Made by a program: the position numbers and the translations under genes. The notes under the pieces are model-generated. The model had not been told where the DNA came from. It worked only from the letters and a program-made list of their open reading frames with translations, and made no database searches. A DNA stretch of 64,000 nucleotides from an uncultured Brevinematales bacterium (GTDB taxonomy: Bacteria > Spirochaetota > Brevinematia > Brevinematales > JAOACQ01). Shown one piece after another: positions 30,399 to 56,619 of this stretch. Each line of letters begins with the position of its first letter. Positions within the stretch are counted from its first letter, which is position 1. The stretch spans positions 16,862 through 80,861 of the forward strand of contig CAZHNM010000002.1 in the NCBI GenBank assembly GCA_964533855.1, in the 5' to 3' direction.

Positions 30399-30412
30399 TT
30401 AAGGACGTTTGA

Positions 30413-34320: not shown

Positions 34321-34329
34321 GATAATTAT

Positions 34330-34965: not shown

Positions 34966-34983
34966 CTGGCGGGGAGGTTTACT

Positions 34984-35741: not shown

Positions 35742-35758
35742 GACAAAAGAGGATAATT

Positions 35759-36763
35759 ATGTTTGGTGAAGAATACGCCTCGGTTTATCCGAAGGTTAAA
35801 AGCTGGGCCGGAACATTAGTGCTGACTAAGGATAAATGCTCCGAGATGCTTTCGATGAATTTAGCCGATTATAAGCAGTATCTAAAATCGCTGTCGAAAA
35901 AGATAAGTTTGAATACCGAAGATAATGTTCAGCTCGAAGGCCAGCTCAAGCAGGAAGGCTATTATTTTATCGAGAGTATAAGCCGTTATCTCATGGGTTA
36001 CACCAAAGATTTTGTAAACTACCTGGGTAAAATGCTCGAGATTGAGAACCTGAAATTAGTAACAAGGGCTCTGCTGAATAAGAGGCCCGTTAATTTCCTG
36101 TATAAACTAAAAAAAATGAGCCGTATCCAGATGGAATTTGTAAAGGATATCAAAACCCTCGAAGAATTCCATGAACTGCTCAGCGGCACTGAATATTACA
36201 GACTGGCAACGGACGCAATACCGAGGATAGAGAGCGAAAACACAACATTTTATTTTGAAATGAACCTCGATAATTACTATGCAAATAACATCAAAAAGAA
36301 GGTTTCAAAATTAGGGCCTGATGAGAAGCAGCAGGTTAAAAATATATTTTATTATTACATGAATGTAAACCGGCTGTTATGGATTTACAGAGCCAAATTC
36401 AATTATTCGATGTCTAATGAGGAAATAATAGCAATAGTCCCGAATATACAGGTGATCTTCAACAAGGCGCAGTACCAGGCCCTTCTAGACTCGGAAACCA
36501 AAGAGGATTATATCGAGAATTTAAAAAAATCCGGTTTCCTCGAGATTAGAAACCCGGATCATTTCGATCTTGAAAGGGAGATGCATTATCAGCTTCTGAT
36601 CAAGGGGAAGTCCTGTCTTTCGGGATACCCGTTCAGCCTCGGTGTTTTTCTCGGATTTTTCGTTTTGAATATAATACATGTGAAAAATCTTATTACTGTT
36701 TTAGAAGCAAAAAAACTTGATATTGATCCCGCTAGGGTTATGGATCTGCTGATTTATTATTAA
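35759..36763 (+). CDS. atpC: V/A-type ATP synthase subunit C (eukaryotic d / AC39 family)
   Basis: 334 aa with an AAGAGGA RBS. The EIENLKLVTRALLNKRP pattern recurs in the C/d family, and the gene sits in the operon. Confidence 0.6.
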   Translation: MFGEEYASVYPKVKSWAGTLVLTKDKCSEMLSMNLADYKQYLKSLSKKISLNTEDNVQLEGQLKQEGYYFIESISRYLMGYTKDFVNYLGKMLEIENLKLVTRALLNKRPVNFLYKLKKMSRIQMEFVKDIKTLEEFHELLSGTEYYRLATDAIPRIESENTTFYFEMNLDNYYANNIKKKVSKLGPDEKQQVKNIFYYYMNVNRLLWIYRAKFNYSMSNEEIIAIVPNIQVIFNKAQYQALLDSETKEDYIENLKKSGFLEIRNPDHFDLEREMHYQLLIKGKSCLSGYPFSLGVFLGFFVLNIIHVKNLITVLEAKKLDIDPARVMDLLIYY

Positions 36764-36773
36764 GGATTAACCG

Positions 36774-38729
36774 ATGTTTATAGCGCAGAGAATGAAGAAA
36801 ATCGACATGCTGATCGTGAAGAAGCTGGCCGATGAAGTATCCAGGGAAATTGTCAAATTCGGAGATTTCCAGTCTATTGAAATAAACGGTGAAAAAGCGA
36901 AAAGCCTGATGCTTTCAAAGAATGCCACCGATGCAGGCGTTGCGCGTTTTACAGATCTCGATAAAAGAATCAATTATCTCATGACAACCTTCGAAAGCAT
37001 AATGGAAAACATCGGATTGTGGAAAAACGAGGAGATCACGGAATCCGGGATGACTGATGTCGAAACCCTTGAAATAAATGTAAAGTCTATAGAAACAGAA
37101 TTGAATTTTCATAACAGCGACCTTGAAAGGCTCCGGAACGACCAGAAAGACGCTAAAATCAGGATCAAGAAAATCAATTACTTTTCAGAGCAGGATATAG
37201 ACTGGGCAAGGGCCGAAAATCTAAGGTTTTTCGATATCGGATTCGGAAGCATCCCCATGACCGGCTACGAAGGATTTGAAAGCGCAATGCAGACTCTTCC
37301 TTCAATTGTAGAAAAAATCGACACGGTAGGCGACGTAGTTATCGTGTTTTATATGGCTCCCGCTTCGATAAAAGACAAGGTCTTACAGATCCTGAAAAGC
37401 GTTTACTTCAAGGACTACGGGATTCCCAGGTCGACTGTCGAAGCCGGCAAGTCGGCACTTGTGCATTACGCGTTCGAATTATCGGCGGCTTATGATGAGG
37501 AATTATGGCAGGAAAAACAGTTTAAAAAAAGTGTTCTTGACTACAGGACCCTGCTGAAGACTCTTAAAAACAGCGCCCAGTATTATATTGCGATGGAGCG
37601 CCTGAAGGGTGAAATGGTTTATTCAGATAAAGTCTGCGTTTTTTCAGGATGGGTGCCTTCGAAGATTGTTCATAAATTAGAAAAGAAAATGGAGCAGGTT
37701 TCCGGGAATAGATGCGTATTTTTAGAGCAGAGCGCATCTAAAGTCATGGATGAAGAGGGCATGATGCCTCCTACAAAGTTCAATAATCCGTTCTTTATAA
37801 AACCTTTTGAAATGCTGACATCGACTTTCGGTACTCCGAATTACAGGGAAATCGATCCCACCCCCATAATGGCGGTGACTTTTATCCTCATGTATGGCGC
37901 CATGTTCGGGGACGCCGGCCAGGGCCTGGTCATCGTGCTTCTCGGCATTCTCGTGTTTTTGGTAAAGAAGCTCAAATCGTTCAGGGCGTTCGGGGCGATA
38001 TTGATCTATGCCGGGCTTTCCGCGTCGTTTTTCGGCGTTATGTACGGGGCTATATTCGGTTTTGAAAATGTTTTGAAACCTGTCTGGATAAATCCCATGG
38101 AACATATAAACGATATTCTAATGATTTCAGTGGGTTACGGCTCTTTGGTGATTTTATGCGCCATGCTGCTTAACATTATAAACAGCATAATGGAAAGAAA
38201 TTACGGCCGGCTTCTCTTTTCGACAAACGGTGCCGCAGGACTAGGATTTTACGGTTCTCTGATATTTGTGGCTTTGTGCGCTATTAGAGGAATTCATTAC
38301 CCGAATTATGTGTTTATAATAACAGGCGCCTGCGCCATTCTCATCGCACTGGAAAAGAACCTTGAAAGATGGTTTTTCGGCCATCATGGCAAGGGGGCGG
38401 ATGATGAAAAACCTAGCATCGGATTGGGTTTAATTGAAATGTATGAATCCATGATGGGTTTCCTCAGCAACACCATTTCTTATATCAGGGTAGGCGCCTT
38501 TGCGCTGAACCATATCGCCCTGATGAGCGTGGGTTTTATTTTTGCTTATTCCTCAAAAGAACCGGCCGTTCAATGGATCGTGCTTCTCCTATGGAATCTC
38601 TTTATTATTGGTTTCGAAGGATTCATAGTCTTCATACAGGTTATAAGGCTCGAATACTACGAATTCTTCACGCGCTTCTTCCGCGCGGACGGCAAGGCCT
38701 TCGAAGGAATAGGGATCTACAAACCGTAG
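36774..38729 (+). CDS. atpI: V/A-type ATP synthase subunit I (a)
   Basis: 651 aa with a soluble N-terminal half and a polytopic C-terminal half. It has SYIRVGAFALNH (essential Arg region) and RLEYYEFFTRFF. Confidence 0.85.
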   Translation: MFIAQRMKKIDMLIVKKLADEVSREIVKFGDFQSIEINGEKAKSLMLSKNATDAGVARFTDLDKRINYLMTTFESIMENIGLWKNEEITESGMTDVETLEINVKSIETELNFHNSDLERLRNDQKDAKIRIKKINYFSEQDIDWARAENLRFFDIGFGSIPMTGYEGFESAMQTLPSIVEKIDTVGDVVIVFYMAPASIKDKVLQILKSVYFKDYGIPRSTVEAGKSALVHYAFELSAAYDEELWQEKQFKKSVLDYRTLLKTLKNSAQYYIAMERLKGEMVYSDKVCVFSGWVPSKIVHKLEKKMEQVSGNRCVFLEQSASKVMDEEGMMPPTKFNNPFFIKPFEMLTSTFGTPNYREIDPTPIMAVTFILMYGAMFGDAGQGLVIVLLGILVFLVKKLKSFRAFGAILIYAGLSASFFGVMYGAIFGFENVLKPVWINPMEHINDILMISVGYGSLVILCAMLLNIINSIMERNYGRLLFSTNGAAGLGFYGSLIFVALCAIRGIHYPNYVFIITGACAILIALEKNLERWFFGHHGKGADDEKPSIGLGLIEMYESMMGFLSNTISYIRVGAFALNHIALMSVGFIFAYSSKEPAVQWIVLLLWNLFIIGFEGFIVFIQVIRLEYYEFFTRFFRADGKAFEGIGIYKP

Positions 38730-38882
38730 GTAACGAGGAACGAATTTAATGTACTCTCCTCTTCTCTGTGTTTCCCTGTGAAAATATCCCTGCTCTTTTT
38801 CTTTACATTGATGCTTCTCAATCGAGTATTAGGCGGGAGACGAACTTCCGCCTGCCGACTATTATGATAAAAGGACTCTGAG

Positions 38883-42488: not shown

Positions 42489-44243
42489 ATGGCTTTGAAA
42501 ATAGACGACTTGCAGGCAGTCCTTGATATTAATAGAAAGATAAATTCCATAGAAGATGTTAGAAGCATTCTTAACGATATTTCACATTATGCCGGAGAGC
42601 TTCTGAAAGCCGAGGGGGCTTCCATCCTTCTTGTCGATCCTGAAACAGGCAACCTGTTTTTTGAAGTCGCTTTCGGTGAAAATGCCGACGCCCTGAGCAA
42701 TGTTATTGTTCCAAAGGGCAAGGGTATTGCCGGATATGCCGCCCAGAAAAAAGAACATGTTATTGTATACGATGCTGAAAATGACGACAGGTTTTATAAA
42801 GAGGTGGACCAGAAGACCAATCTCAAAACGAAAAGCCTCCTTGCAATGCCGCTCATCCATAATGATAATGCGATAGGGGTGATAGAAGTCATAAATCCGG
42901 CCCGAAAGGTTTTCACGGATGACGATGTGATACTTTTGAAGCAGTTTGCCGAACAGGCGGCAACCGCGATCGCCAATGCCCTTCTTTATAAAGCCGCACA
43001 GATGAGGTCCAAGGAGCTGGAATATCTATACCAGATTTCAAATCTCACCAATCTTACATATGACAGGAAAGTCCTTTTTGCAAAGATAGTTGAACTTCTT
43101 TCGAAAATCTTTAATTCACACCGCGTTTCGATAATGTTCATCAATGAAAAAACAGGAAACCTTTATATAGAGAGCGCAATTGGAATGCCTCAGGACGTAG
43201 TTGATAAGATGGAACACAGCCTTGATATAGATAAAATTTCAAGCAGGGCAATCAAGCAGGGTAAAACATTTTATTCAAACGATATTGAAAAGACAGGGCT
43301 CGGCAGAAATAAAAGGTTCAGATATAAAAACACAAGCTTTATAAGCTGCCCCATCAAAATAAAGAATATATGCGTCGGCGTGATTAACATTTCCGAACCG
43401 AAGAAATGGGCCCGGTATACGCCAGAAATGATTAAAACCTTAAGAACAATAGCAAACCAGGTCGGGTATACCTATGAAAGCATGCTCAGTTACATCAAGC
43501 AGCTCGAACATGAAAAAATAAAGAAAGAAATCGAAATCATGAAGACCCTCCAGAATGCACTTTTGATAAGCGATTTCAATTCGTTTAAAACCGTATCGGT
43601 TTTTGCAAAGATGCTGACTGCAGAGATCGTCGGCGGTGATTTTTACGATATTTACAATCTGACTCCCAACAGGATCGGCTTCGTAATCGGAGACGTTTCA
43701 GGCAAGGGGCTTCCCGCCTCCCTTTACATGGCGGTATCGAGGAGCGTGGTGAAAGCATATGCCTTTCATACAAAGGAGCCGCACAGGCTGCTTGAGTATT
43801 CGAACGATATTCTCGTTGAAGATTCGAGAGTAGGTATGTTTGTTACCATGTTTTACGGGTGCATAGACCTCAACAGGATGGCTCTTGAATATTCCAATGC
43901 GGGCCATAATCTTCAATACCTTTACAAACCTGATGAGGGGCTATTCATATCCCTGTCGAGCAAAGGGATACCTTTAGGCATATCAAAATCTGAAAATTAT
44001 GTCTCGACGACAACCCAGCTTGAACATGGGGATATAATTTTCTGTTTTACCGACGGGATTATCGACGCCGTTAATGATAAAGGAACGGATTTCGGCCTGG
44101 ACAGGCTTAAGAGGATTTTCAGGGAATATTCTTCACTGAACGCTTCTGCAATCGTAAACATCATTTTCAGGGAACTCGATCTGTGGTCGAACGGCGCGCC
44201 GCAGTGGGACGACATGACATTGCTTGTATTCAAGATACCTTAA
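42489..44243 (+). CDS. GAF-GAF-PP2C (SpoIIE-type) serine/threonine phosphatase
   Basis: 584 aa with two GAF-like regions. The SpoIIE/PP2C motifs are GGDFYDIY, IGDVSGKGLPASLYM, TDGIIDA and DDMTLLVFK. Confidence 0.8.
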   Translation: MALKIDDLQAVLDINRKINSIEDVRSILNDISHYAGELLKAEGASILLVDPETGNLFFEVAFGENADALSNVIVPKGKGIAGYAAQKKEHVIVYDAENDDRFYKEVDQKTNLKTKSLLAMPLIHNDNAIGVIEVINPARKVFTDDDVILLKQFAEQAATAIANALLYKAAQMRSKELEYLYQISNLTNLTYDRKVLFAKIVELLSKIFNSHRVSIMFINEKTGNLYIESAIGMPQDVVDKMEHSLDIDKISSRAIKQGKTFYSNDIEKTGLGRNKRFRYKNTSFISCPIKIKNICVGVINISEPKKWARYTPEMIKTLRTIANQVGYTYESMLSYIKQLEHEKIKKEIEIMKTLQNALLISDFNSFKTVSVFAKMLTAEIVGGDFYDIYNLTPNRIGFVIGDVSGKGLPASLYMAVSRSVVKAYAFHTKEPHRLLEYSNDILVEDSRVGMFVTMFYGCIDLNRMALEYSNAGHNLQYLYKPDEGLFISLSSKGIPLGISKSENYVSTTTQLEHGDIIFCFTDGIIDAVNDKGTDFGLDRLKRIFREYSSLNASAIVNIIFRELDLWSNGAPQWDDMTLLVFKIP

Positions 44244-44926: not shown

Positions 44927-47002
44927 CTACATTTTAATATTATACTCTTCCATCTTGCTGCGGAGAGTATTCCTGTTTATGCCCAGGAATTCCGAGGTTT
45001 TAACCTTGTTGCGGTTGTTGAACATCAGGGATCTTGTTATCAATTCCTTTTCAATATGCCCGATGATCCTCTCATAAAGTTTCCCGTCGCCGGAAGAATT
45101 TTTAACAAAACCTTCTATCCATTTGCTGATATGTATATCCGGAACCTCTTCGATATCCATCAGGAAAGAAGGAAGATTAGCTACTTCTATTGTCTGGGTC
45201 TGGCAGAGAAGGACTGCGCGTTCTATTACGTTCTCGAGCTCCCTGATATTGCCGGGCCAGTTGTAGGACTGCAGAAGCCTCAGGGATTCCTGTGAAATCC
45301 CATGAACGTTCTTGCTGTCGCGCGACGAATATTTTTTAATAAAATGATTCACAAGCAGGGGAATGTCGTCTTTCCTGTTGCGGAGAGGGGGGACCTTGAC
45401 CTCGATGACATCGAGGCGGTAATAAAGGTCTTCCCTGAATTTCCCGTCTTTTATCAGTTTATCGAGCTCTTTATTCGTTGCGGAAATTATCCTGATGTCG
45501 ATCTTGATTTTAATCTCGCTTCCAAGAGGTTCAATTTCCCTTTCCTGGATCGCCCTTAAAAGCTTTGCCTGGAGATAAAGAGGCATATCTCCGATTTCAT
45601 CGAGAAATATTGTCCCGCCGTTAGCGAGCTGGAATTTTCCCTTCTTATCGGCGGAGGCTCCTGTAAAAGCGCCTTTTTTATATCCGAAGAGCTCGCTTTC
45701 GAGAAGATTTTCAGGGATTGATGCGCAATTTATGCTGATAAACGGGGCGTCCCTTCTGCTGCTTCCCACATGGAGAGCCTGGGCGACAAGTTCCTTGCCT
45801 GTTCCGCTTTCACCAAGGATCATTATCGATGAACTGCTGTCGGATACTGTCCTGATAAGTTCAAAAACCGCGATCATCAGCTTGTTTTTACCTATGATAT
45901 TGTCGACAGCGAAATTTTTGAAAAGCTCTTTTTTCAGACTGAGGTTTTCAGCGATAAGGTTCTCTTTATCTTTGTATATCCTCTCCCAGGATTTAACCTT
46001 GTTAGCTATAATATTGGCAACGAGAGTCATCAGGTCTTCTTCATCAAGGAGCATCGAGTCACTTTCATAATATTTTTCAACAGCTAACACACCGACAACT
46101 ATACCCTCGATCTTTATCGGTACCGCGATAAAAGATATAGGGATGTTTTTGTCTCTCTTGATCTGAAGCCTGTTCAGATAGGAATCATCCTTGTTGATGT
46201 CCTTCACCGTGACTGCCTTTCCCGTTTCAACAACCCTTCCTACCACTCCTTCGCCTACCTTGTAAATGCCTCTTGACATTTCTTCATCAGTAATATTATA
46301 AGCATTATAAATAGACAATTTATTAGGTTCGTCTTTTTCGAAAAGAACTAGCATGCCCCTGTAGATTCCGAAACTGTCAGCTAATTTTTTCATCACGATC
46401 TCAAATGAATCGGACAGTTCGAATATTTTTTCTATGCTCTGCGAAATATCCAGAAGGATGTCTTTTAATTTTATCTTGCTTTCTAATTGGTGGTTAAGAT
46501 TTGTCCTGACAAGTATCTGTGCCGCCTGATTTGAAATAGTCTGGAGAAATTCCATATCGTCTTCTGTGAAAGCGCCGGTTTTAGCGCTGTCGACATTGAC
46601 CACGCCGATGATTTTACCCTGGACCGACAGGGGCACAGCAAGTTCGGCTTTTATATCCTTACGAACGGGTAAATAAAACGGATCGATGCTTACATCATTG
46701 ACAAGCCTGGGTATGCCGTCCTGGAATACGGTTCCTGTAAGCCCTTCGCCGACCTCAATAGGAGTATTGAAAACCATGTCCTCATCCAGCCCCTTGAAAG
46801 CCTCGTACCTGAGATGTCTTGAACCGGGGTCTTTTATCATGATCGAACCGCTGTCCGCTCCAGTGATAGAAATACATTTATCGAGCATAATCTTCAGGAG
46901 TTCCTGGGAATCGGATGTCTCATTCATGGCTATTGTGAGGTATTGGATAAGCTTCAGCCTTTTGATTTTTTCTTCAAGTTCTTTGGTATAATTACCTTCC
47001 AT
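44927..47002 (-). CDS. sigma-54-dependent transcriptional activator (GAF-GAF-AAA+-HTH, no receiver domain)
   Basis: About 691 aa with Walker A GESGTGKE, GAFTGA, ELFGYKKGAFTGA and a C-terminal Fis-type HTH. I chose the ATG at 47002 (MEGNYT). The ORF track uses TTG at 47014. Confidence 0.9.
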   Translation of the reverse strand: MEGNYTKELEEKIKRLKLIQYLTIAMNETSDSQELLKIMLDKCISITGADSGSIMIKDPGSRHLRYEAFKGLDEDMVFNTPIEVGEGLTGTVFQDGIPRLVNDVSIDPFYLPVRKDIKAELAVPLSVQGKIIGVVNVDSAKTGAFTEDDMEFLQTISNQAAQILVRTNLNHQLESKIKLKDILLDISQSIEKIFELSDSFEIVMKKLADSFGIYRGMLVLFEKDEPNKLSIYNAYNITDEEMSRGIYKVGEGVVGRVVETGKAVTVKDINKDDSYLNRLQIKRDKNIPISFIAVPIKIEGIVVGVLAVEKYYESDSMLLDEEDLMTLVANIIANKVKSWERIYKDKENLIAENLSLKKELFKNFAVDNIIGKNKLMIAVFELIRTVSDSSSSIMILGESGTGKELVAQALHVGSSRRDAPFISINCASIPENLLESELFGYKKGAFTGASADKKGKFQLANGGTIFLDEIGDMPLYLQAKLLRAIQEREIEPLGSEIKIKIDIRIISATNKELDKLIKDGKFREDLYYRLDVIEVKVPPLRNRKDDIPLLVNHFIKKYSSRDSKNVHGISQESLRLLQSYNWPGNIRELENVIERAVLLCQTQTIEVANLPSFLMDIEEVPDIHISKWIEGFVKNSSGDGKLYERIIGHIEKELITRSLMFNNRNKVKTSEFLGINRNTLRSKMEEYNIKM

Positions 47003-47182
47003 TCCAGACCTCAATATGTCTATTATTTAACCACTATTATAATAGGTGAGTAATTTATAAGCAAATAATTTTTTAAGATCAGAATAATAATTAATAAAAG
47101 TTGTAATTTAATTTTAATTAATTATAATTAAACATTGAAGAAAACAGAGAGATAAAGACAGGGTTGTTTCGGAATTTCGTTA

Positions 47183-47197
47183 TGGAACAATAATTGC
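47183..47197 (+). promoter_or_regulatory. sigma-54 (-24/-12) promoter upstream of glnA
   Basis: TGGAAC-AATAA-TTGCC matches TGGCAC-N5-TTGCW with correct GG-N10-GC spacing. It lies about 40 nt upstream of the glnA ATG and is divergent from a sigma-54 activator gene. Confidence 0.65.
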
Positions 47198-47238
47198 CGT
47201 AAACGATTAGCATAATTAAAATAAATTTGGAGGTATAT

Positions 47239-48657
47239 ATGGACGCTAAGGGTGTATTAGACCTGATAAAGAAAGAAGGCATAGTTCAGGTCGATTTACG
47301 TTTTATGGATTTTCCGGGAATGTGGCAGCACTGTACTTATCCTGTTTCAGAATTTAAGGATGACAGCCCTTTTACAGAAGGTTTGGGATTCGACGGTTCT
47401 TCAATCCGCGGCTGGCAGGGCATTAACGAATCAGATATGCTCCTGATGCCTGATCCGAGCACAGCAGTTATCGATCCTTTTACCCAGTATCCCACTCTTA
47501 TCATGATTGCGGATATCAAGGATCCTATCACACACCAGGAATACTCAAGAGACCCCAGGCATATCGCTAAAAAATCAGTTGATTATTTAAAAAGCACAGG
47601 CATCGGCGATATGATCTACTTCGGGCCTGAACTCGAGTTCTTCATATTCGATGATATAAGATACGGCCAGAACACCAAAGAAGGATTTTATCACATAGAT
47701 TCAGACGAAGGCGTCTGGAATACCGGAAGGGAAGAAGAATGCGGCAACAAGGGTTATAAGATCAGGCATAAAGAGGGATATTTCCCGGTACCCCCTTCAG
47801 ATTCTCTTATGGACCTCCGCAGTGAAATGGTCCAGATGCTTGAAAAAGTCGGCATCAGGGTCGAAGCTCACCATCATGAAGTTGCAACCGCGGGCCAGAC
47901 TGAAATCGACATGCGTTTCGACGAACTTGTCAGGATGGCCGACAAGGTCCTGATGTATAAATATGTAACAAAGCAAGTCGCTGTCAATAATTGCAAGACA
48001 GTTACCTTCATGCCCAAACCACTCTTCGGCGATAACGGAAGCGGCATGCATTGCCACCAGAGTATCTGGAAGAACGGCAAGAACCTCTTCGCCGGCAACA
48101 AATATGCAGGCTTCTCCCAGGAAGGCCTCTGGTATATCGGCGGTATTTTAAAGCATGCAAATGCTCTCGTCGCTATTACATGCCCGACTATGAATTCCTA
48201 CAAGCGGCTTGTGCCGGGCTTCGAAGCCCCTATTAAGCTTGCTTATTCGGCAAGGAACAGAAGCGCTGCTGTAAGAATACCTATGTATTCATCAAAAGAG
48301 AGCGCAAAGCGTCTTGAATTCAGGACACCCGATCCGAGCTGCAATCCTTACTTAGCTTTTGCCGCAATGACAATGGCAGGACTGGACGGCATCCAGAATA
48401 AAATTGACCCGGGCGAACCTATGGATAAAAATATTTACGACCTCCCGCCCGAAGAACAGGCTAAAGTCGGAAATATCCCTGGTTCTCTTGAAGAAGCACT
48501 GAACAACCTCAAGAACGACCATGAATTCCTCCTCAAGGGAGACGTCTTCACAAAAGATGTTATCGAAACATGGATCGACTACAAGATGGTGAATGAAGTA
48601 AGGGCTATCCAGCAGAGGCCGCATCCTTATGAATTCTTCCTGTACTATGACATTTAA
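47239..48657 (+). CDS. glnA: glutamine synthetase, type I
   Basis: About 472 aa with typical GSI sequence. NIYDLPPEE contains the adenylylation-site Tyr context. The ATG at 47239 follows GGAGG. Confidence 0.95.
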
Positions 48658-48709: not shown

Positions 48710-48769
48710 AGATTGAAATGTTGTTTCGGCAAAAAAAGCATGGTATGCTACGAAAAAAGGAAATTCAAA

Positions 48770-51142
48770 ATGAAAATAATATTCATATCGATTATCATGT
48801 TTTTTGCGGCAGCCGGTTTATCTTTTTCCGCGAACCTGACGGTGAAAGTTACCGACGGCAGGATAGGCCTGGAAGATGCGGAACTGACTTTTCCGGAAAT
48901 CAAGGCCGACTTCCTCTCTGACGATAAAGGGATTTGTGTGTTTAAGAACATTAAGCCCGGAAAATACACAATTTATGCAATGCTGCCGGGGTATGAAAAA
49001 TATTCAAATTCGATTGAAATTAAAAATGAAAATCAGGAAATGGTAATCCTCTTAAAACAGGCGGTTTATTCCCTTGGAGAGATCAGTGTCGAATCAAAGC
49101 GCAACAAGGGAAAAGTGGACAGCAGGACTACTGTAAACCAGGGGGATCTCAGCGCCAACTCCCAGGGATTAATAAATGATTCATTTAAAACCCTCCAGCT
49201 TATGCCAGGTGTTTCATCGGGCGGGAGCGCGCTTGACAGCACCATGTACATCCAGGGAGGAAACGCTAACGAATGGATCGCTTCTATGGACGGTATAATG
49301 ATAGCAAATCCCACGAGATGGGATGTTTTAGGAGTATCAATATCCATGTTCAATCCGTCTTTTGTCGAAAGCATAGATCTTTATACGGCAGCTTACCCTG
49401 CAATGTACGGGCAGGGCCTTTCCGGAATAGTGGTTGTCGATACGATAAACGGAAGCTCGGCCAGGTGGAAAGGATTCATAGACTTATCCCTGATAAATGC
49501 GGAAATACTTGTAGATGGCCCGTTAACTTCTAACCTGACTGTCGCACTGGATCTGAGAGCGACTTCTTATGCTATAATCGGTCCGATTATAATCCAGCTT
49601 GTCGAACCGGGTTTAGCGGGAGATTTAGTACAATGGCCTTACCTCTACGACGGTATCATGAAAGTAAGCTGGGACATCACACCTGACGATAAGCTCGTCT
49701 TCGATGCTTACAGTTCCATAGAGGGTGTTCAGCTCAATCTCGGCGCTTCTACCAACACCATGCAGAACAGCTATAGCCCCGGGGCTGACTATCAATACCA
49801 TATACTCAATGTCATAGGCAGTGCGAGATATACCCGAGAGGTTAATTCCCAGGATTCTTTCGATATCTCTGCGGGAGTTACGCCTACTATAATTAATGAA
49901 CTGTTCAGCCAGGGTTCAATCTTACAGGCAAATATATCCAACGGCCAGTACATATACCAGATTATTCCGAATTATTATTTGAATTCCATCCCGGGCCATA
50001 AAATCCAGGCCGGGGGTATGGTTCTCTACTGCAACCCCCTGTACGGAAACATGGATATCAGCGAATATGCGCTGAACCCCCAGGGAGTATGGACAAATAT
50101 TGTAAGCATAAATTACAATCCAAACCCGATTCAGGCCACATATTGTGCAGCCTACCTGATGGATAACTGGGAATTCATACAGTCCCTTATACTTGAATTA
50201 GGGGGAAGGGAGGAATACTGGTCTCTCAATAACGAATACAATTTCAATCCCCAGGCCGGGATCAAATGGGAAGCGGCAAGGGATCTCGACTTCTACATAA
50301 GGGGCGGGCGTTATTCATTATTTCCCTTTAACTATTTCGATTTGAACAGCGTAAACGGAAACCCTGACCTTCAAAGCGAGAAGGTCTACCACGCGATAAC
50401 AGGAGCGGAATATTCCGACCCCGATTATATGTTCAAGATCGAGGGATTTTACAAATATTATTACGATCTTGACGAAAGCGATTCCGTTATCAATATAAAT
50501 AATAACGGGATCAGGAACATTTTCGGAGGGGATATCTACCTGCAGAAAAAGCAGAAGAAAGGTGACTGGCTGTCGGGATGGGTCTCATATACATATGTAA
50601 ACGGCCTCGAGGAAATAACGGACCGCTCGCCAGATAACCCTGCCAATCCGTATTCCCAGCCCCTGGACCAGTACTTTGTACCCGGTTATCTAAGGACCCA
50701 CACCATATCCGCGGTTGCGGAACTCACATATTATAAAAACCCCGACAAACCGTTGTTTCTGGATTTTATTCATCAATGGAAGTTTTCGATGACACTGACG
50801 GCAATGAGCGGCCTGCCGTATACCCCTGTCACGAATTATGTAGCCGCCACTGTAAACGGGTGGAGCCAGTATTATTATTTAAACGGCGATTACGACAGCA
50901 TGTACACGCCATGGTATGTCAGGCTTGATTTGAAATTAACTATTCCTTTCGGCGATTGGGCATGGCTTAAATGGATGTTCGGCCCTGACGCAGGAGGCTA
51001 TTTCTATGTAGAAGTCCTGAATGCCTTAGATAATGCCAATATCCTCGGATACTCATATTCGGTAAATAACGGACAGCTGACGCAAACCCCGGAGAATGAT
51101 ATTCCCATCCTGCCGGTGCTTGGTTTAAGGATCGAATTTTAA
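48770..51142 (+). CDS. outer-membrane beta-barrel protein with an N-terminal carboxypeptidase-regulatory-like domain (TonB-dependent receptor-like)
   Basis: The start at MKIIFISIIMFFAAAGLSFSA gives a signal peptide. A CarbopepD_reg-like segment is present (LTVKVTD...KPGKYTIYAMLPGYEKY). The C-terminal region is long and rich in aromatic beta-strand patterns, and the protein ends in ...GLRIEF. Confidence 0.7.
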   Translation: MKIIFISIIMFFAAAGLSFSANLTVKVTDGRIGLEDAELTFPEIKADFLSDDKGICVFKNIKPGKYTIYAMLPGYEKYSNSIEIKNENQEMVILLKQAVYSLGEISVESKRNKGKVDSRTTVNQGDLSANSQGLINDSFKTLQLMPGVSSGGSALDSTMYIQGGNANEWIASMDGIMIANPTRWDVLGVSISMFNPSFVESIDLYTAAYPAMYGQGLSGIVVVDTINGSSARWKGFIDLSLINAEILVDGPLTSNLTVALDLRATSYAIIGPIIIQLVEPGLAGDLVQWPYLYDGIMKVSWDITPDDKLVFDAYSSIEGVQLNLGASTNTMQNSYSPGADYQYHILNVIGSARYTREVNSQDSFDISAGVTPTIINELFSQGSILQANISNGQYIYQIIPNYYLNSIPGHKIQAGGMVLYCNPLYGNMDISEYALNPQGVWTNIVSINYNPNPIQATYCAAYLMDNWEFIQSLILELGGREEYWSLNNEYNFNPQAGIKWEAARDLDFYIRGGRYSLFPFNYFDLNSVNGNPDLQSEKVYHAITGAEYSDPDYMFKIEGFYKYYYDLDESDSVININNNGIRNIFGGDIYLQKKQKKGDWLSGWVSYTYVNGLEEITDRSPDNPANPYSQPLDQYFVPGYLRTHTISAVAELTYYKNPDKPLFLDFIHQWKFSMTLTAMSGLPYTPVTNYVAATVNGWSQYYYLNGDYDSMYTPWYVRLDLKLTIPFGDWAWLKWMFGPDAGGYFYVEVLNALDNANILGYSYSVNNGQLTQTPENDIPILPVLGLRIEF

Positions 51143-51259: not shown

Positions 51260-51688
51260 ATGATCCTTGTTTTCGGCTGCGCAGTTCCGGATACCGTCAG
51301 GCCTGAAGATATGTCCGTCAGGTATATTCTTGACGTCACGATGAATGAAAAAGCCCTCTATAACAATATCCTCGCATGGCTTGCCGAAAACGGAAACTCT
51401 TCCAGGAGTGTCCTGAAAGAGCGGCTGGAAAAGCCAACTGCCCCTTTGGGGGCCGGAAAAATTACAGGCAGAGGATACCTTGACATAACTCTGGATGGAA
51501 CTGAGGTAAAAACCGTTAATTACACTATAAAATTTTTGACTGAAGAAAACAGGTGCACGATGATCTTTGATAATTTCAAATACAACGGAAGCGGCGCCCC
51601 CGTATCGTCAAAAGAGCATTTCACGGTGATTAAATACGAAACCCGGAAAATAGCCGACAGCCTTCTCGAATTCCTGCAGAAGCGTTAA
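51260..51688 (+). CDS. putative lipoprotein (start probably upstream at a non-ATG codon)
   Basis: The lipobox LVFGC is only 7 residues from the annotated Met. The in-frame upstream codons after the TGA stop at 51218-51220 encode S-I-KASIILLFLGI, and from the ATT codon at 51224 this completes a signal peptide. GGGGG lies 6 nt before that ATT. Confidence 0.5.
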   Translation: MILVFGCAVPDTVRPEDMSVRYILDVTMNEKALYNNILAWLAENGNSSRSVLKERLEKPTAPLGAGKITGRGYLDITLDGTEVKTVNYTIKFLTEENRCTMIFDNFKYNGSGAPVSSKEHFTVIKYETRKIADSLLEFLQKR

Positions 51689-51693: not shown

Positions 51694-54600
51694 TTATAGC
51701 TGCAGCTTCCTGATCTCATTCTCAAAAACAGAAGAGACATCCTGCCTGTGTTTGTCAATTGTGTTTTTTAGAAGGACAGGTGATTTTTCATCGATAATGC
51801 CGACAAAATAGCTCCTTTTAACGAGGTAGTCGTATTCGGCCGAATCCTGAGGATAGACGCTCAGATCTTTCGCGTTTCCCTTGACCATCCTGAGGATATT
51901 GATGAGATTCCTGAAAAATAGATAGCCGTTATTTAAAATTCCCCATGAATTTTCATCAATTACGCCGGTTTTGAAAAGGGCTTCTATGGAGTCGAGCGTG
52001 GATTCGCACCTGACGGCCGGGATATCTTTACCGCAGGCTATCTGGAGGGTCTGTACGAGGTATTCGATATCCACAAGGCATCCTTTCGAGTATTTAATAT
52101 TGGTCAGGCCCGGCTTTTTTATATACGAGCCGATCTGTTTTTCCCTGAGTTTATACAGCGCGTTGATATCGGGTTTTATACCGCTGTAGACAAAAAGGTC
52201 GCGACCTGAAATGATATCTTTTATCAGGCTTTCGGGCGCGTTACCCCCGCATATAGGGCGGAGCTTGACCATGGCCTGCTTTTCGAAATAATAAGCCTTG
52301 CCTTCACGGAAATATTCAAGAAAGACTGATTTCGAAACCGGAATTCGGGATGATTTGCCGTAAGGCCTGAGGTTTAAATCAATCTCGAAAATCCCCTCTC
52401 TTTTTGAACGAATGATCTTAAGAAGGTCCTGCATATATTTTTCGTAATAGGTAACCATGTCATTATTGCCGCGGGTACTTTCCTCCGGATCATCATCATA
52501 GATGAACATTATTTCTATATCCGAGGCGTAGCCGAGTTCCCTGCCCCCGAGTTTTCCGAGTCCGAAAACCGCCCAGGCCGGTACTTTTTTCATACCGCCT
52601 GTCTTCTGCATCTCTTTATCAATTTTCTTCATTGCAATATCTATGACCGATTCGGCAAGATCGGTCAGTTCCAGGGAGAATTCTGCCATACCGGTCATCT
52701 TCAGTATCTGCCTGATATCTATCCTGAACATTTCCCTGTCCTTCCAGTCATTCAGAAGGATGCTGAAATTTCCCTCCCGAACCTTCCCTGTTTGTCCGGA
52801 TAATTCACTTAAAAATAATTCGGTAAGCTGTTCCCTGGTGAAATGCTGCTTAAGGACAGGATCGCTCAACACCGGCAGCATATCAGTATACTGCAGCCTT
52901 ATCAGGTCCTCCCAGAAATAATCGCCGATCCCGAATACGGCCGCCAATTTTTCCTGGACATCCTTCTGCCCTAAAATCGGAAGCTCTTTTTTATCTCCGC
53001 TTTCCAGAACCCTCATGAGAAGTTCGTCAAAATACAGGAGCGCTTTATCGGGGTTGACGGCATTCTGGAGTAAAGTCGAATACTGCTTTATCAGGGCTGC
53101 GGCTATTTTAAGATTTTCAATTTCCCTTGTTTCCAGTATCTTTTTTCCGTCCCTTGTGAGAATAAACAGCCTGTCGAAGACCCTCTCACCGGAGGTATCT
53201 ATCTCGATTTTAAATATATAATAATTATAAAGGGCAAGAACGTTCGTAAATGTGTACAGGAAAGCGAAACTGTCCCCGGAACTTATGTTCAAAATCGTAT
53301 ACCGGCTGCTTGAAACATTGTCGACGCCTATTTCAACCGGAGCTATAGACGGAGTTTCGCCGGATTGAATCAATGAAATAAGACCGAGGATCTTGTTATT
53401 GAGGAATTCCTCGGCTTCCCTTGCCCTGTTGTTTTCAAGAAGACTCAGGATAAAGGACAGCTCTTTCCTGAAATTATCCCAGTCCGGTTCATGATGATTT
53501 TCAAACTCTTCGACGGTTAGAAAACATACAATCTTTCTCCTGTAGATCAGCCCCCCGGTTTCCGCGGGAGGGGAATATGGGTATATCCTCTTTTCCTGTC
53601 TCCTGTAAAATGCGCCGGAATCTCCGCCGTATGTGAATGATTCGCCGCTGATGATTTTCAGGTAATAGGCTGAAACCAGTCCTGCGATTTTCGAAAATTC
53701 ATAATAATAATCAAAAGCTACGATTGTAAGCTCCCACCTTCCGGGCCCTGTTTTTTCAGCTTTAATGAGGGCGGGGTTCCGGATATCGAGTTTTGAAATC
53801 ATCATTAAATGAGAATAGATATTATCTTCGCTGAAGGACAGGAAATACTCGCTGTCCATCCTCAGAAAATGATCCGAAAGGAGTTCCCTGTCGATATCGG
53901 GGTGACCGGCGAGAAGATTATCCTTCAATTCCAGGTAATGGATGGTTTCATCGAAAAGGTATGTGAATATTTCCCTGACTTCTTTCATGATATTTTGAAG
54001 CCTTGCCTTAAACTCCATGCTGTAATTATCTGTGCCGGAATCGAATCCGTCTATCCTCCAGGGGCGGAACAGCGTTTCGATATCCTTGTCATCAGCAGGC
54101 AGGGAATGTTCGGGAGTATTGTTTTTCAGCTGTATGATGTTTTCTATTTTACGCAAGGTTATATAGCTCGAATGCAGAATCGAGAATTCTCCGGGGGTTA
54201 TAATATGGAATGTACTGAGAAGCGAAAGAGCCGTGAGCGAATTGGGATTTTTAAATTCAGGATACCTTATTCCATGGATAAGCTGGAGAAACTGGATAAT
54301 AAATTCTATATCCCTTATTCCGCCAGGGGACTGCTTTATTTCGAATAAAAGGTTTCTGCTGCGAATATTGGTTTCGATAAGATCCTTGGTCCTTTTAATG
54401 TCGTATAAAATGGCATGCGGCTGGTGATGGCTGTATATAATATCGTCAAGCCGGGTGGAAAATTCATCGAAAAGAACTGCGCTTCCCCAGACAAGCCTTT
54501 TTTTTATCATTGCCTGGAGCTCCCATTTTCTTGCCCTGTCTCTGTAATAGTCAAGAGCATCGGCGGCTCTCATAAAGAGCGGACCGTTGCCGCCTTCCGG

Positions 54601-55182
54601 ACGCAGCCTCATATCCACCCTGTATAAAAAGCCTTCGCTTGTCGTGGAGCTTATAAAATCAAGAAGGCCTGTCAGTAATGCCCCTGTATAATCGTCGGAA
54701 TCCCCTACAAGAAAAACCAGGTCGATATCTGAACTGATATTAAGCTCGTTCCCGCCTAATTTCCCCATTCCGATAATAATAAGGTTTTCCACGAGGGATT
54801 TATAACGCAGCAGATCATTACCGCTTCCGGCTAAAAGGCTTTTGACCGAGTAATCTATGCAGAAATCAGCGAGCCTTGAAAGACTTTCGATGGTATCCTT
54901 GACGGTGTAAATTTTAAGAAAATCCTTGAGGGCGATAAGAGCAAGCTCCCTGTTTTTTATTTCCCTTGACCGGAGCTTGAGGCTTTCCGGCGCGGCATCC
55001 TCAGGCGGGAAAGGGTATTTCAAAGAATACGGATCCTCTATTACTCCTTCCAGGGTCCCATTGTTAAAACCCTCGATAATATTATACATTTCCAGTCTCA
55101 GCGCTTCATTCCTGGAAAGGAGCATTGATATGTAGGGACTGGAAAGCTCAAGGCTTCTTATGGATTCTTCAGGATTGATCAT
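51694..55182 (-). CDS. glnE: bifunctional glutamine synthetase adenylyltransferase/adenylyl-removing enzyme with a central ACT-ACT insertion
   Basis: 1162 aa with two GlnE nucleotidyltransferase cores (GMGKLGGNELNISSDIDLVF with MRLRPEGGNGPL, and GLGKLGGRELGYASDIEIMF with LNLRPYGKS). Residues ~435-700 between them contain two ACT-like beta-alpha-beta-beta-alpha-beta segments. Confidence 0.85.
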   Translation of the reverse strand: MINPEESIRSLELSSPYISMLLSRNEALRLEMYNIIEGFNNGTLEGVIEDPYSLKYPFPPEDAAPESLKLRSREIKNRELALIALKDFLKIYTVKDTIESLSRLADFCIDYSVKSLLAGSGNDLLRYKSLVENLIIIGMGKLGGNELNISSDIDLVFLVGDSDDYTGALLTGLLDFISSTTSEGFLYRVDMRLRPEGGNGPLFMRAADALDYYRDRARKWELQAMIKKRLVWGSAVLFDEFSTRLDDIIYSHHQPHAILYDIKRTKDLIETNIRSRNLLFEIKQSPGGIRDIEFIIQFLQLIHGIRYPEFKNPNSLTALSLLSTFHIITPGEFSILHSSYITLRKIENIIQLKNNTPEHSLPADDKDIETLFRPWRIDGFDSGTDNYSMEFKARLQNIMKEVREIFTYLFDETIHYLELKDNLLAGHPDIDRELLSDHFLRMDSEYFLSFSEDNIYSHLMMISKLDIRNPALIKAEKTGPGRWELTIVAFDYYYEFSKIAGLVSAYYLKIISGESFTYGGDSGAFYRRQEKRIYPYSPPAETGGLIYRRKIVCFLTVEEFENHHEPDWDNFRKELSFILSLLENNRAREAEEFLNNKILGLISLIQSGETPSIAPVEIGVDNVSSSRYTILNISSGDSFAFLYTFTNVLALYNYYIFKIEIDTSGERVFDRLFILTRDGKKILETREIENLKIAAALIKQYSTLLQNAVNPDKALLYFDELLMRVLESGDKKELPILGQKDVQEKLAAVFGIGDYFWEDLIRLQYTDMLPVLSDPVLKQHFTREQLTELFLSELSGQTGKVREGNFSILLNDWKDREMFRIDIRQILKMTGMAEFSLELTDLAESVIDIAMKKIDKEMQKTGGMKKVPAWAVFGLGKLGGRELGYASDIEIMFIYDDDPEESTRGNNDMVTYYEKYMQDLLKIIRSKREGIFEIDLNLRPYGKSSRIPVSKSVFLEYFREGKAYYFEKQAMVKLRPICGGNAPESLIKDIISGRDLFVYSGIKPDINALYKLREKQIGSYIKKPGLTNIKYSKGCLVDIEYLVQTLQIACGKDIPAVRCESTLDSIEALFKTGVIDENSWGILNNGYLFFRNLINILRMVKGNAKDLSVYPQDSAEYDYLVKRSYFVGIIDEKSPVLLKNTIDKHRQDVSSVFENEIRKLQL

Positions 55183-55524: not shown

Positions 55525-56619
55525 ATGACTCGTAATTACGCTCTTACCAGCCCATACGGCGAAAAGGATATCTCGGGATGCGGCCTTATCGGATTTATTA
55601 ACAGGGACGGGATAAAATCAACAGGAACCGATGCTATAAAAGGCATTGAACATATGAAAGACAGGGGAAACGGCCTGGGCGGAGGTTTCGCCGTTTACGG
55701 CCTTTACGATACATACAAGGATTATTATGCTCTGCATGTGATGTATGACGATAACGCTTCGATGGAAGCCGGAAAGGATTATATAAAAAAATATTTCGAT
55801 ATCGTATATGAAGACCAGATCCCGACAAGGAAGAACAAAACGATCAGCAAACCCCCCATTTTTTACAGGTATTTCTGCCGTGTAACGGACGCCCAGCTTG
55901 GAAATGAAAAAGAGGACGATTACGTCGTTTCGCAAGTGCTGTTTATAAACAAGAATATCGACGGAGTTTTTGTAGTTTCGAGCGGCAAGAATATGGGAGC
56001 GTTCAAAGGAGTAGGCGAAGCTCATGAGATCGGAGATTTTTTCAGGCTTGACGAATACCGGGCCCATACATGGATCGCTCACAGCAGGTTTCCGACCAAC
56101 ACTCCAGGCTGGTGGGGAGGCGCTCACCCGTTCACTATTCTTAATTATTCCGTTGTCCACAACGGCGAAATTTCATCTTACGGAATTAACAGAAGATACC
56201 TTGAGAGTTTCGGTTACGAATGCACAATGAGGACCGATACCGAAGTCGTCGCTTATGCCGTCGATCTCCTGAAAAGGAAGCATAACCTTTCCTGGGATCA
56301 GATAGCCAAAGTTTTTGCGGCGCCGTTCTGGAAAGATATTGACGCAATGGATGAGAAATCGAAGGCTCTTTACAAGGAGATAAGGATTGTATACGGGAGC
56401 CTGCTTCTCAACGGGCCCTTTGCTTTCATAATCGGCTTCGACGGCGGGTTTATGGCACTCTCCGACAGGGTGAAGCTACGGCCCCTCGTAGCTGCCGAGA
56501 GCGGCAAAACCCTCTATGTATCGAGCGAGGAGGGGGCGATAAGGCGCATTAACGGCAAACTTGACCGGGTATGGCACCCTGAAGCCGGCGAGCCCGTTTT
56601 CGGCTACCTGGAGAATTGA
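55525..56619 (+). CDS. class-II (Ntn) glutamine amidotransferase, stand-alone glutamate synthase GltB domain-1-like protein
   Basis: 364 aa with a GAGAGG RBS. The candidate catalytic Cys lies in DISG-CGLIGFI, after an 18-residue leader. HSRFPTNT and VHNGEISSYG motifs are typical of GltB/PurF-type amidotransferases. Confidence 0.7.
   Translation: MTRNYALTSPYGEKDISGCGLIGFINRDGIKSTGTDAIKGIEHMKDRGNGLGGGFAVYGLYDTYKDYYALHVMYDDNASMEAGKDYIKKYFDIVYEDQIPTRKNKTISKPPIFYRYFCRVTDAQLGNEKEDDYVVSQVLFINKNIDGVFVVSSGKNMGAFKGVGEAHEIGDFFRLDEYRAHTWIAHSRFPTNTPGWWGGAHPFTILNYSVVHNGEISSYGINRRYLESFGYECTMRTDTEVVAYAVDLLKRKHNLSWDQIAKVFAAPFWKDIDAMDEKSKALYKEIRIVYGSLLLNGPFAFIIGFDGGFMALSDRVKLRPLVAAESGKTLYVSSEEGAIRRINGKLDRVWHPEAGEPVFGYLEN

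Follow-up and report, generated by a model that had tools for sequence, protein, structure and literature searches.

A GlnD-type module between the two catalytic halves of long GlnE proteins in Spirochaetota and other phyla

The glnE gene of the window, i.e., the 64-kb stretch of DNA from an uncultured Brevinematales bacterium that was analyzed here, encodes a GlnE whose two nucleotidyltransferase (NT) halves are separated by an insert of approximately 270 residues (~432–705), and this insert is homologous, far beyond chance, to the post-HD linker and the ACT1-ACT2 region of GlnD. A likeness of residues ~435–700 (window 53083–53880, minus strand) to the C-terminal part of GlnD had been suggested in an earlier note made from the DNA alone, and the product length given there, 1162 amino acids, agrees with the open reading frame (Table 1). 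Every protein string quoted in that note was found in the translation, in which DHFLRMDSEYF lies at residue 437, WELTIVAF at 483 and YTILNISS at 628; an identical protein is present in databases under the name ‘glutamate-ammonia-ligase adenylyltransferase’. The ACT-bearing GlnE is a trait of a widespread family and no peculiarity of the window gene. We hypothesize, and consider somewhat probable, that the GlnD-type module of this long GlnE subfamily is an intramolecular sensor placed between an AR-like N-half and a C-type half.

Table 1. Positions of the long glnE, its parts and neighboring features in the window.
Feature	Position	Strand	Basis
glnE, long form, 1162 aa (N-half, GlnD-type module, C-half)	51694..55182	-	ORF; PF03710 x2, PF08335 x2
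N-terminal NT half, AR-like, DxD motif (residues 1–425)	53908..55182	-	hhalign to E. coli AR; SSDIDL
N-half catalytic motif GMGKLGGNELNISSDIDLVF (residues 138–157)	54712..54771	-	homologue conservation
Helical lead-in of the module, DHFLRMDSEYFLSFSEDNIYSHLMMISKL (residues 432–463)	53794..53889	-	aligns with GlnD post-HD linker
First ACT-like unit (residues 471–602)	53377..53772	-	AF2; colinear with GlnD ACT1
Basic loop inside ACT1, low-confidence, length-variable (residues ~518–549)	53536..53631	-	pLDDT <50; alignment lengths
Second ACT domain (residues 617–705)	53068..53334	-	PF24931; aligned to GlnD ACT2
C-terminal NT half, divergent ‘C-type’, presumed adenylyltransferase (residues 706–1162)	51694..53067	-	second PF03710/PF08335 stretches
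C-half catalytic motif GLGKLGGRELGYASDIEIMF, DxE replacing DxD (residues 874–893)	52504..52563	-	homologue alignment
glnA, type I glutamine synthetase; adenylylation-site Tyr at 48436–48438	47227..48657	+	PF00120, PF03951; motif
Sigma-54-type -24/-12 element TGGAACAATAATTGC upstream of glnA	47183..47197	+	pattern scan
GAF-GAF-sigma54 AAA+ HTH activator, divergent from glnA	44927..47014	-	Pfam
Stand-alone class-II glutamine amidotransferase-like gene, divergent from glnE	55525..56619	+	PF00310

Homology, predicted fold and conservation of the insert

The whole protein matches PF03710 (GlnE; E = 1e-75) and PF08335 (GlnD_UR_UTase; E = 7.7e-29) in two stretches each, giving the tandem arrangement of PF03710, each followed by PF08335, that marks the GlnE family. 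It scores below the curated NCBIfam equivalog cut-offs for GlnE (PRK11072, 370.1 vs. 487; PRK14109, 318.5 vs. 625; PRK14108, 297 vs. 724), and therefore represents a distinct subfamily rather than an equivalog of the characterized enzymes. The equivalog cut-off for GlnD is not reached either (TIGR01693, 58.4 bits vs. 519.4), and Pfam found no HD domain (PF01966) in the window GlnE.

The earlier note had called for a domain scan of the insert and for a structural model. Searched alone against NCBIfam, the insert matched GlnD models exclusively, including PRK05092 (E = 5.8e-12) and TIGR01693 (E = 4.7e-11, model positions 624–842 of 850). Its profile is colinear with residues 654–869 of the 890-residue E. 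coli GlnD (hhalign 89.5%, E = 1.9e-6) and aligns with residues 656–885 of the GlnD of a Spirochaetales MAG, locus L040 (84.3%), so that the C-terminal linker, ACT1 and ACT2 of GlnD are all represented in the window GlnE. The identity is only 17–19% by hhalign, even for the GlnD of a genome that holds both proteins. No counterpart of the insert profile was found in E. coli GlnE (hhalign 0.1%); a MAFFT alignment placing E. coli GlnE 446–554 across the insert was rejected as forced, since the profile comparison finds no homology. Sequence searches of the PDB with the insert alone and with its profile returned no significant match, hence no solved close relative was found by sequence.

The AlphaFold model of the insert (pLDDT 85.6, pTM 0.85) comprises a helical lead-in and two beta-alpha-beta-beta-alpha units, a fold that was reproduced in the model of full-length GlnE. 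The lead-in is predicted as three helices and aligns with E. coli GlnD 654–700, and the first unit is predicted to run beta-beta-alpha-beta, variable loop, beta-alpha-alpha, with pLDDT >90 outside the loop. Foldseek matched the module to ACT-like structures with a probability of 0.99–1.0; the best matches were ACT-repeat regulatory regions, namely those of L-GDH180 (7jsr, E = 3.9e-6), IlvA (9d2r), SerB2 and plant ACT-like domains, and the whole-module matches include tandem-ACT proteins.

Two ACT-like domains had been read from the translation, and the second (residues 617–705) is recognized as an ACT domain by both sequence match and fold, whereas the first had no ACT match in Pfam. Residues 618–691 of the window GlnE match PF24931 (E = 3e-5) with 24.4 bits, just below the gathering score of 27; across long-GlnE family members PF24931 is matched in 22 of 23 and PF01842 in 11 of 23 (best E = 7.6e-11). 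The first unit is only ‘ACT-like’, as judged from its colinear alignment with GlnD and its predicted fold. An internal-repeat argument for the two units was dropped, since their profiles showed no significant similarity (hhalign 0.2%).

Among 40 homologues, conservation of the insert equals that of the catalytic cores, with H438, Y446, H458, D491, G501, G513, T517, N622, T629, D670 and K681 invariant. The glycines of the beta1-alpha1 loops, present in most of the family, are replaced in the window's clade by Y494 and A640 (DYxGEL to DYYYEF and DTxGFLY to DSFAFLY), and the aspartate of ‘IVDVF’ in ACT1 is a cysteine there. The window GlnE thus lacks the loop glycine that is taken as a sign of ligand competence, and ACT1 at least may be degenerate in this clade. 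In AMA2 of Chlamydomonas, substitutions of the loop glycine and Asp of the ACT domain barely altered the glutamine response; since this response survives loop-Gly substitution, the weight of the glycine loss in the window's clade is uncertain.

ACT domains commonly mediate oligomerization, and the module could be purely structural, serving ACT-ACT dimerization or acting as a spacer that fixes how the two halves are arranged on the GS dodecamer, with no ligand being sensed. The lost loop glycines and the long, variable, disordered basic loop in ACT1 would suit such a role. We nevertheless regard it as quite improbable, since conservation equal to that of the catalytic cores, including the polar residues H438, H458, D491, N622, T629, D670 and K681, exceeds the needs of a spacer, the homologous region of GlnD is sensory, and the module stays bound to one half throughout gene splitting and permutation (see below).

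The catalytic halves and the glnA neighborhood

Both catalytic cores had been described as normal, and their motifs are present in the window GlnE at the expected places (Table 1), although the G-x-G-K-x-G-G...D-x-D motif reads DxD in the N-half and DxE in the C-half, unlike E. coli. The N-half is closer to E. coli AR (residues 1–440; hhalign 469.8) than to AT (441–946; 374.7), has 31% identity to E. coli GlnE (169 bits), and its SSDIDL is kept in 40 of 40 homologues. The C-half is equidistant from AR (260.5) and AT (256.9), and an assignment as AT by similarity was rejected for this reason; it is presumed to be the adenylylating half from its position and by elimination. The C-half motif, placed at 874–893 by the numbering of its invariant residues (L875...E890), reads SDIE in 38 homologues and SDVE or SDLE in the remaining two, so that the DxE pattern (D888 and E890) is invariant in all 40, and it may still bind metal. 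The AF2 model of full-length GlnE (pTM 0.60) has a low-confidence linker at 720–780, and the docking geometry of the domains is not predicted.

Compared with the canonical GlnE of E. coli (ATase, 946 aa), the long form likewise consists of two tandem NT + PF08335 halves with an AR-like N-half, and its gene is likewise linked to a glnA whose product bears the adenylylation tyrosine. By contrast, the E. coli enzyme lacks the ~270-residue linker and ACT-ACT module, and has DxD where the C-half of long GlnE has DxE. Structures exist for the AR and AT domains of canonical GlnE.

The type I GS partner is encoded about 3 kb from glnE in the window, and 37 of 80 related loci have glnA no farther than 10 kb from the long glnE. 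The glnA of the window probably begins at the ATG at 47239 (RBS + ATG), and the translation keeps the adenylylation-site context NIYDLP that had been pointed out before. The sigma-54-type element, some 40 bp ahead of where glnA starts, is the sole match in the window, with a count not above chance (at least one match in 87 of 100 shuffles). The activator flanking glnA is of the GAF type, with no NtrC-type receiver protein, and it is conserved beside glnA/glnE in the five closest relatives in which glnA adjoins glnE (L004, L005, L007, L008, and L011). The class-II glutamine amidotransferase-like gene is also kept near glnE in close relatives.

Distribution of the module and its association with the C-type half

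A survey of GlnE architecture in related taxa, as the earlier note had proposed, found the ACT-bearing long form in at least 530 species genomes of Spirochaetota, Chloroflexota, Nitrospirales and others, which makes it a family trait rather than a single-gene oddity. The 80 loci listed among these genomes are all from MAGs. Among 50%-identity representatives, a threshold of E ≤ 1e-30 gives 288 clusters and one of E ≤ 1e-10 gives 2157. Databases carry long GlnEs under automatic names only, e.g., ‘ACT domain-containing protein’, and our literature search found no paper that joins GlnE with ACT domains and no prior description. The long GlnE forms a large, uncharacterized subfamily of a known enzyme, apparently undescribed and unstudied.

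In 267 collected proteins, the module (M) occurs as N-M-C (152), M-C (49) and M-C-N (15); where a full-length protein among them has two halves, the module never adjoins an N-type half. The half that follows the module in the other architectures scores 193–270 bits to the C-half of the window GlnE vs. 76–107 bits to its N-half. In one locus (L084) the gene is split into N (512 aa) and M-C (746 aa), with a gap of 44 bp exactly at the module boundary, and a permuted M-C-N form (L085) is also linked to glnA. The module thus stands directly before the C-type half in fused, split and permuted forms of the gene, most likely for allosteric control of that half.

The same data bear on the origin of the long form. 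It might be ancestral, with no insertion having taken place: N-half plus module would then correspond to GlnD minus its HD domain, and the GlnE of proteobacteria and actinobacteria would have lost the ACT module later. NT and PF08335 are common to GlnE and GlnD, GlnD shows the same series of NT, PF08335, linker, ACT and ACT, many phyla carry long GlnE, and at 17–19% identity the module has diverged deeply from that of GlnD. On the other hand, it is the C-half, not the N-half, with which the module is functionally linked, and we hold an ancestral long form to be possible but rather unlikely. This alternative is about where the long form came from rather than how it works, and it can be true together with the sensor-module explanation.

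As for mechanism, under the sensor hypothesis the module would be an allosteric sensor of a small metabolite of nitrogen status, most probably glutamine as in GlnD, and its target would be the C-type half next to it, which is presumed to be adenylylating. High glutamine would favor GS adenylylation, whereas at low glutamine deadenylylation by the N-half would dominate. Glutamine is probably the ligand by analogy with known systems, although it is not confirmable from sequence, since no validated glutamine signature of GlnD-type ACT domains is known and the AMA2 substitutions are near-silent. GlnD needs its ACT domains to respond to glutamine, as stated in a passage of PMC11190351 that cites Zhang et al. 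(2010). GlnD differs in having an HD domain, where long GlnE has none and carries a second NT half, and in its substrate, which is PII rather than, as is likely for long GlnE, GS. Of the Pfam ACT families, the one that matches the module best is PF24931, which is like ACR9 of the plant ACR proteins, and in AMA2 a GlnD-type ACT domain was shown to give glutamine responsiveness to an unrelated catalytic domain, although the catalytic partners and kingdom of these proteins differ from those of long GlnE.

Direct glutamine sensing by GlnE is not a new idea. In E. coli and H. seropedicae, canonical GlnE, which has no ACT module, senses glutamine via its C-terminal domain, and PII-independent GlnE has been reported for Streptomyces and H. 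seropedicae (10.64898/2026.09.02.748916). The enzymes of S. coelicolor and H. seropedicae thus provide a precedent for control of GS adenylylation without unmodified PII and through glutamine sensed directly by the C-terminal part of GlnE; the glutamine site is assigned to the AT domain at the C-terminus, and no ACT module is described (10.64898/2026.09.02.748916). A site in that domain fits a sensor placed against the C-half.

A different effector, such as another amino acid, 2-oxoglutarate or a nucleotide, or effectors specific to each clade, would agree with the Foldseek matches to isoleucine-binding IlvA and to SerB2. ACT domains bind many different ligands, and in the spirochaete clade the loop positions of the two ACT units have changed although conservation inside the clade is strong, which is the pattern that a specificity change would give. 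However, the nearest sequence relatives of the module are GlnD and plant ACR-type ACT repeats, both tied to glutamine signaling, and glutamine is a known direct effector of GlnE (10.64898/2026.09.02.748916); we consider a ligand other than glutamine unlikely.

Relation to the GlnD-PII relay

That the nitrogen island holds no glnB or glnD, as the earlier note had observed, holds for a wider region: no match to PII or the GlnD HD domain was found in the 64-kb window, including by tblastn with the HD region of E. coli GlnD, nor any PII or GlnD in about 15 kb of added flank, which together cover ~80 kb of the 379-kb contig. In the five closest relatives with glnA adjoining glnE, the DNA up to 10 kb from glnE likewise gave no match to PII or GlnD-HD. 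It is conceivable that the GlnE with its ACT module works as a glutamine switch on its own and takes the place of the GlnD-PII relay, with the relay missing from the genome. In addition to these absences, such a replacement would accord with the GAF-type sigma-54 activator, conserved in the clade, that stands at glnA instead of an NtrC-type receiver, and with the precedent of PII-independent GlnE (10.64898/2026.09.02.748916).

Other members of the family speak against it. The Spirochaetales MAG (L040) carries glnD-glnB-amtB-glnA-long glnE in one cluster, with a full-length, genuine GlnD and a GlnE of 1217 aa with ACT, and retains GlnD and PII despite a GAF-type activator (41.6% identity). In another locus (L072), tblastn gave matches next to the long glnE for glnA, for two PII genes and, at the edge of the contig, for a GlnD-type HD domain, and PII genes occur within 10 kb of the long glnE in four further loci. 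Moreover, PII genes are usually located with amtB elsewhere, and the inspected DNA is ~80 kb of the 379-kb contig. Replacement of the relay in this genome is therefore doubtful. Since L040 encodes GlnD, PII and long GlnE side by side, the ACT module is no general substitute for PII/GlnD. Of the earlier suggestion that GlnE senses glutamine directly and bypasses PII/GlnD, the local absence of both and the precedent stand, whereas L040 has both and L072 has tblastn matches to both, canonical GlnE already senses glutamine without an ACT module, and the loop glycines of the ACT units are lost in the window's clade; the suggestion is thus supported in part. The sensor hypothesis does not require replacement, as module, PII and GlnD coexist in some genomes; the module would be an extra sensor dedicated to GlnE.

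Adenylylation of GS is a textbook regulatory cascade. In the spirochaete lineage, GS control might be free of PII and GlnD, with a one-protein sensor-effector, a GAF-driven glnA in place of NtrBC, and a long form linking the evolution of GlnD and GlnE; this combination is rather unlikely, and if it is true, the three-protein GlnD-PII-GlnE cascade would be collapsed into one polypeptide. For the family as a whole, the long GlnE supplies a delimited candidate for the sensor domain that is locked to a single catalytic half, probably bridges GlnD and GlnE in evolution, and opens up nitrogen control in the poorly studied Spirochaetota, Chloroflexota and Nitrospirota.

The inserted module and the two catalytic halves

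The earlier note described a GlnE of 1162 amino acids with a GlnD-like segment between its nucleotidyltransferase halves. This observation is confirmed: the ORF has that length, all sequence strings quoted occur in its translation, and PF03710 (GlnE nucleotidyltransferase, E = 1e-75) and PF08335 each match in two stretches, while residues 618–691 match the ACT-like PF24931 at 24.4 bits, below its gathering score of 27. Searched alone, the 266-residue insert matched only GlnD models among NCBIfam (PRK05092, E = 5.8e-12; TIGR01693, E = 4.7e-11), the latter at model positions 624–842 of 850, which is the whole GlnD part after the HD domain. E. coli glnD and glnE served for comparison: hhalign placed a profile of 23 insert sequences colinear with residues 654–869 of the 890 in E. 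coli GlnD (89.5%, E = 1.9e-6, 215 columns), spanning the post-HD linker (Y-F...H motif), ACT1 and ACT2, and aligned it with residues 656–885 of a spirochaetal GlnD (84.3%). By contrast, this profile has no detectable homology to E. coli GlnE (0.1%), where the insert has no counterpart, and BLASTP alignment of the whole window GlnE with E. coli GlnE is limited to the two catalytic halves. A MAFFT alignment that spread the short central region of E. coli GlnE across the insert was forced, and was disregarded. These comparisons establish that a GlnD-type, putatively sensory module is inserted in GlnE.

AlphaFold2 applied to the insert alignment (mean pLDDT 85.6, pTM 0.85) predicts three lead-in helices and two units, the first with a beta-beta-alpha-beta/disordered loop/beta-alpha-alpha topology and the second beta-beta-alpha-beta-beta-alpha; these elements reappear in the full-length GlnE model. 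In a Foldseek search of the PDB, ACT-repeat regulatory regions rank first, with matches to the 180-kDa glutamate dehydrogenase of mycobacteria (7jsr, E = 3.9e-6; its N-terminal ACT-like part), the regulatory domain of E. coli threonine dehydratase (9d2r), SerB2 and plant ACT-like domains. Of the two ACT-like domains claimed earlier, the second is supported by its fold and by Pfam, since PF24931 matches in 22 of the 23 family inserts and PF01842 in 11 (best E = 7.6e-11), all within this unit. The first unit has neither a Pfam match nor any similarity to the second detectable by profile comparison, and is therefore termed 'ACT-like' on the basis of GlnD colinearity and predicted topology.

In an alignment of 40 long GlnEs, the N-half retains DxD, and by profile comparison it is nearer the adenylyl-removing (AR) half of E. 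coli GlnE (469.8) than the adenylyltransferase (AT) half (374.7). The C-type half carries DxE in all 40 (SDIE 38, SDVE 1, SDLE 1), whereas E. coli AT has DxD, and DxE is, at the sequence level, a signature of the long-GlnE subfamily. Because the C-half is equidistant from AR (260.5) and AT (256.9), we infer from position and by elimination that it is the adenylylating half.

Coordinates of features (window positions unless a related locus is named)
Feature	Position	Strand	Remark
glnE, long form	51694..55182	minus	ORF, 1162 aa
Insert region of the earlier note	53083-53880	minus	residues 435-700 of long GlnE
C-half catalytic motif, DxE pattern	52504-52563	minus	40-sequence alignment
A640	53263-53265	minus	loop-glycine replacement, spirochaete-type clade
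C555	53518-53520	minus	ACT1 'IVDVF' aspartate replaced, spirochaete-type clade
Y494	53701-53703	minus	loop-glycine replacement, spirochaete-type clade
glnA, type I GS	47227..48657		probable start ATG at 47239, preceded by GGAGG
Sigma-54-like -24/-12 element	47183-47197	plus	TGGAACAATAATTGC
GAF-GAF-sigma54 AAA+ HTH activator	44927-47014	minus	divergent from glnA
GAF-GAF-SpoIIE (PP2C) phosphatase	42489-44243	plus	adjoins activator
TonB-dependent-receptor-like gene	48713-51142	plus	CarbopepD_reg_2, Plug, beta-barrel; between glnA and glnE
DUF4468 gene	51260-51688	plus	between glnA and glnE
GATase_2 gene, 364 aa	55525-56619	plus	divergent from glnE
Co-oriented ORFs (592, 468, 211, 651 aa, others)	~29500-38730	plus	V/A-type ATPase operon-like, by eye
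Split glnE pair	L084 4419-8241		512-aa N-half; 746-aa module + C-half
Circularly permuted glnE	L085 4409-9825		1274-aa module-C-N; directly downstream of glnA
glnD-glnB-amtB-glnA-long glnE cluster	L040 836-12118		Spirochaetales MAG

Distribution of the long form and coupling to the C-type half

A search of 5.8 billion proteins gave 7319 matches at E ≤ 1e-10. The best 120 of these are all 1153–1325 amino acids long except two fragments; many carry precomputed ACT matches, under names such as 'glutamine synthetase adenylyltransferase', 'ACT domain-containing protein' and '[protein-PII] uridylyltransferase family protein'. When 1.84 billion representatives were searched exhaustively with a profile, the number of matching clusters rose from 288 at E ≤ 1e-30 to 2157 at E ≤ 1e-10 and 5242 at E ≤ 1e-3. 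Scanning one genome per species, we found the module encoded in at least 530 genomes; the matches listed include Spirochaetota/Brevinematales, which are closest (50–71% identity), many Chloroflexota, Nitrospirales, Syntrophales, Thermoanaerobaculia, Verrucomicrobia and Calditrichaeota, and the 80 loci listed are all from MAGs. The module in GlnE is a family trait. FlaA genes in the window's flank fit a spirochaete. Many proteins of ~275–340 amino acids consist of the module alone (P0128, P0139, P0145, P0157, P0169, P0210, P0237 and others) and may represent either independent ACT-ACT proteins of the GlnD type or fragments from contig edges.

Two further architectures appeared in the representative search: a ~740-aa form that begins with the module, followed by one GlnE half, and a ~1250-aa form with the module before two halves, the final one N/AR-like. 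In both, the half right after the module is always of the window C-type (193–270 bits against 76–107 to the N-half, BLASTP). The ~740-aa form reflects a split of the gene: in one locus (L084) the N-half gene ends 44 bp before the module + C-half gene. When 267 collected proteins were sorted with N-half, C-half and module (M) profiles, 152 were N-M-C, 49 M-C and 15 M-C-N; the others (36 module-only, 13 N-M, 2 M-N) are too short for full-length proteins and likely fragments. None of the 267 is a two-half protein with the module directly before an N-type half, and in evolution the module has stayed locked to the divergent C-type half. Conservation across the 40 long GlnEs is as high in the insert as in the catalytic cores, and a purely structural role for it appears improbable. 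As to origin rather than mechanism, the long form might be an ancestral architecture bridging GlnD and GlnE, which we regard as somewhat doubtful.

Gene neighborhood and the PII/GlnD relay

The earlier note also pointed to the adenylylation-site context of GlnA, which a motif check bears out, and in 37 of 80 related loci glnA and long glnE are no more than 10 kb apart; long glnE is linked to a GS that, judged by this motif, can be adenylylated. The sigma-54-like element, which precedes the probable start of glnA by ~40 bp, is the sole match in the window, but chance alone predicts one per 64 kb. The neighboring sigma54 activator lacks a receiver domain and is therefore not NtrC-type. The five closest relatives retain both it and the phosphatase beside glnA/glnE, and L040 too has such an activator (41.6% identical); together, this suggests metabolite-sensing transcription control of glnA. 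The stand-alone class-II glutamine amidotransferase-like gene (GATase_2), which has no other glutamate synthase parts adjacent, is kept near glnE in L004, L005, L008 and L011, and partially in L007.

The interpretation that an ACT-bearing GlnE bypasses PII and GlnD is partly supported. Neither was detectable in the 64-kb window or ~15 kb of extra flank, nor, among the closest relatives, within 10 kb of glnE. As a general rule, the bypass does not hold. In L040, a long GlnE of 1217 aa, which has a GlnD-like module of its own, shares a cluster with PII, AmtB, GlnA and a full-length GlnD (890 aa, matched by TIGR01693 along its entire length at E = 8.5e-114, HD and ACT present), the two module copies being deeply diverged; in L072, tblastn finds a GlnD-type HD domain (at a contig edge), two PII genes and glnA, all adjoining long glnE; and PII lies near long glnE in four more loci. 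Therefore, the module does not generally stand in for the PII/GlnD relay. Complete replacement in the window's own lineage, where the local absence would fit, is unlikely.

Putative glutamine sensing

A 2026 preprint (10.64898/2026.09.02.748916) summarizes that E. coli GlnE senses glutamine directly, reports that H. seropedicae GlnE does so via its C-terminal domain (IC50 about 87 uM) independently of unmodified GlnB, and mentions an S. coelicolor GlnE that does not depend on PII or GlnD. The glutamine response of GlnD needs its ACT domains (Zhang et al., 2010, as cited in PMC11190351). We found no literature linking GlnE with ACT domains.

In both ACT units of the spirochaete-type clade (15 of the 40 aligned sequences), the glycines of the beta1-alpha1 loop are replaced (G to Y, G to A), as is the ACT1 'IVDVF' aspartate (by Cys in the window and in most relatives, by Thr or Phe in others), and these positions are strongly conserved within the clade. 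These replacements weigh less, because loop-glycine and Asp substitutions in the AMA2 ACT domain hardly changed its glutamine response and no residue-level glutamine signature is established for GlnD-type ACT domains. A different effector is conceivable, albeit rather improbable.

Taken together, we hypothesize, and on balance consider probable, that the module is an intramolecular allosteric sensor within GlnE, most likely of glutamine, which would gate the adjoining C-type half, the presumed AT, and thereby set its balance against the N-terminal AR half, working with PII or without it according to the genome. Rather than a new kind of system, the long GlnE is a hitherto undescribed variant within a known enzyme family; its interest lies mainly in the large size of the family, the clean module-to-half coupling and a directly testable hypothesis.
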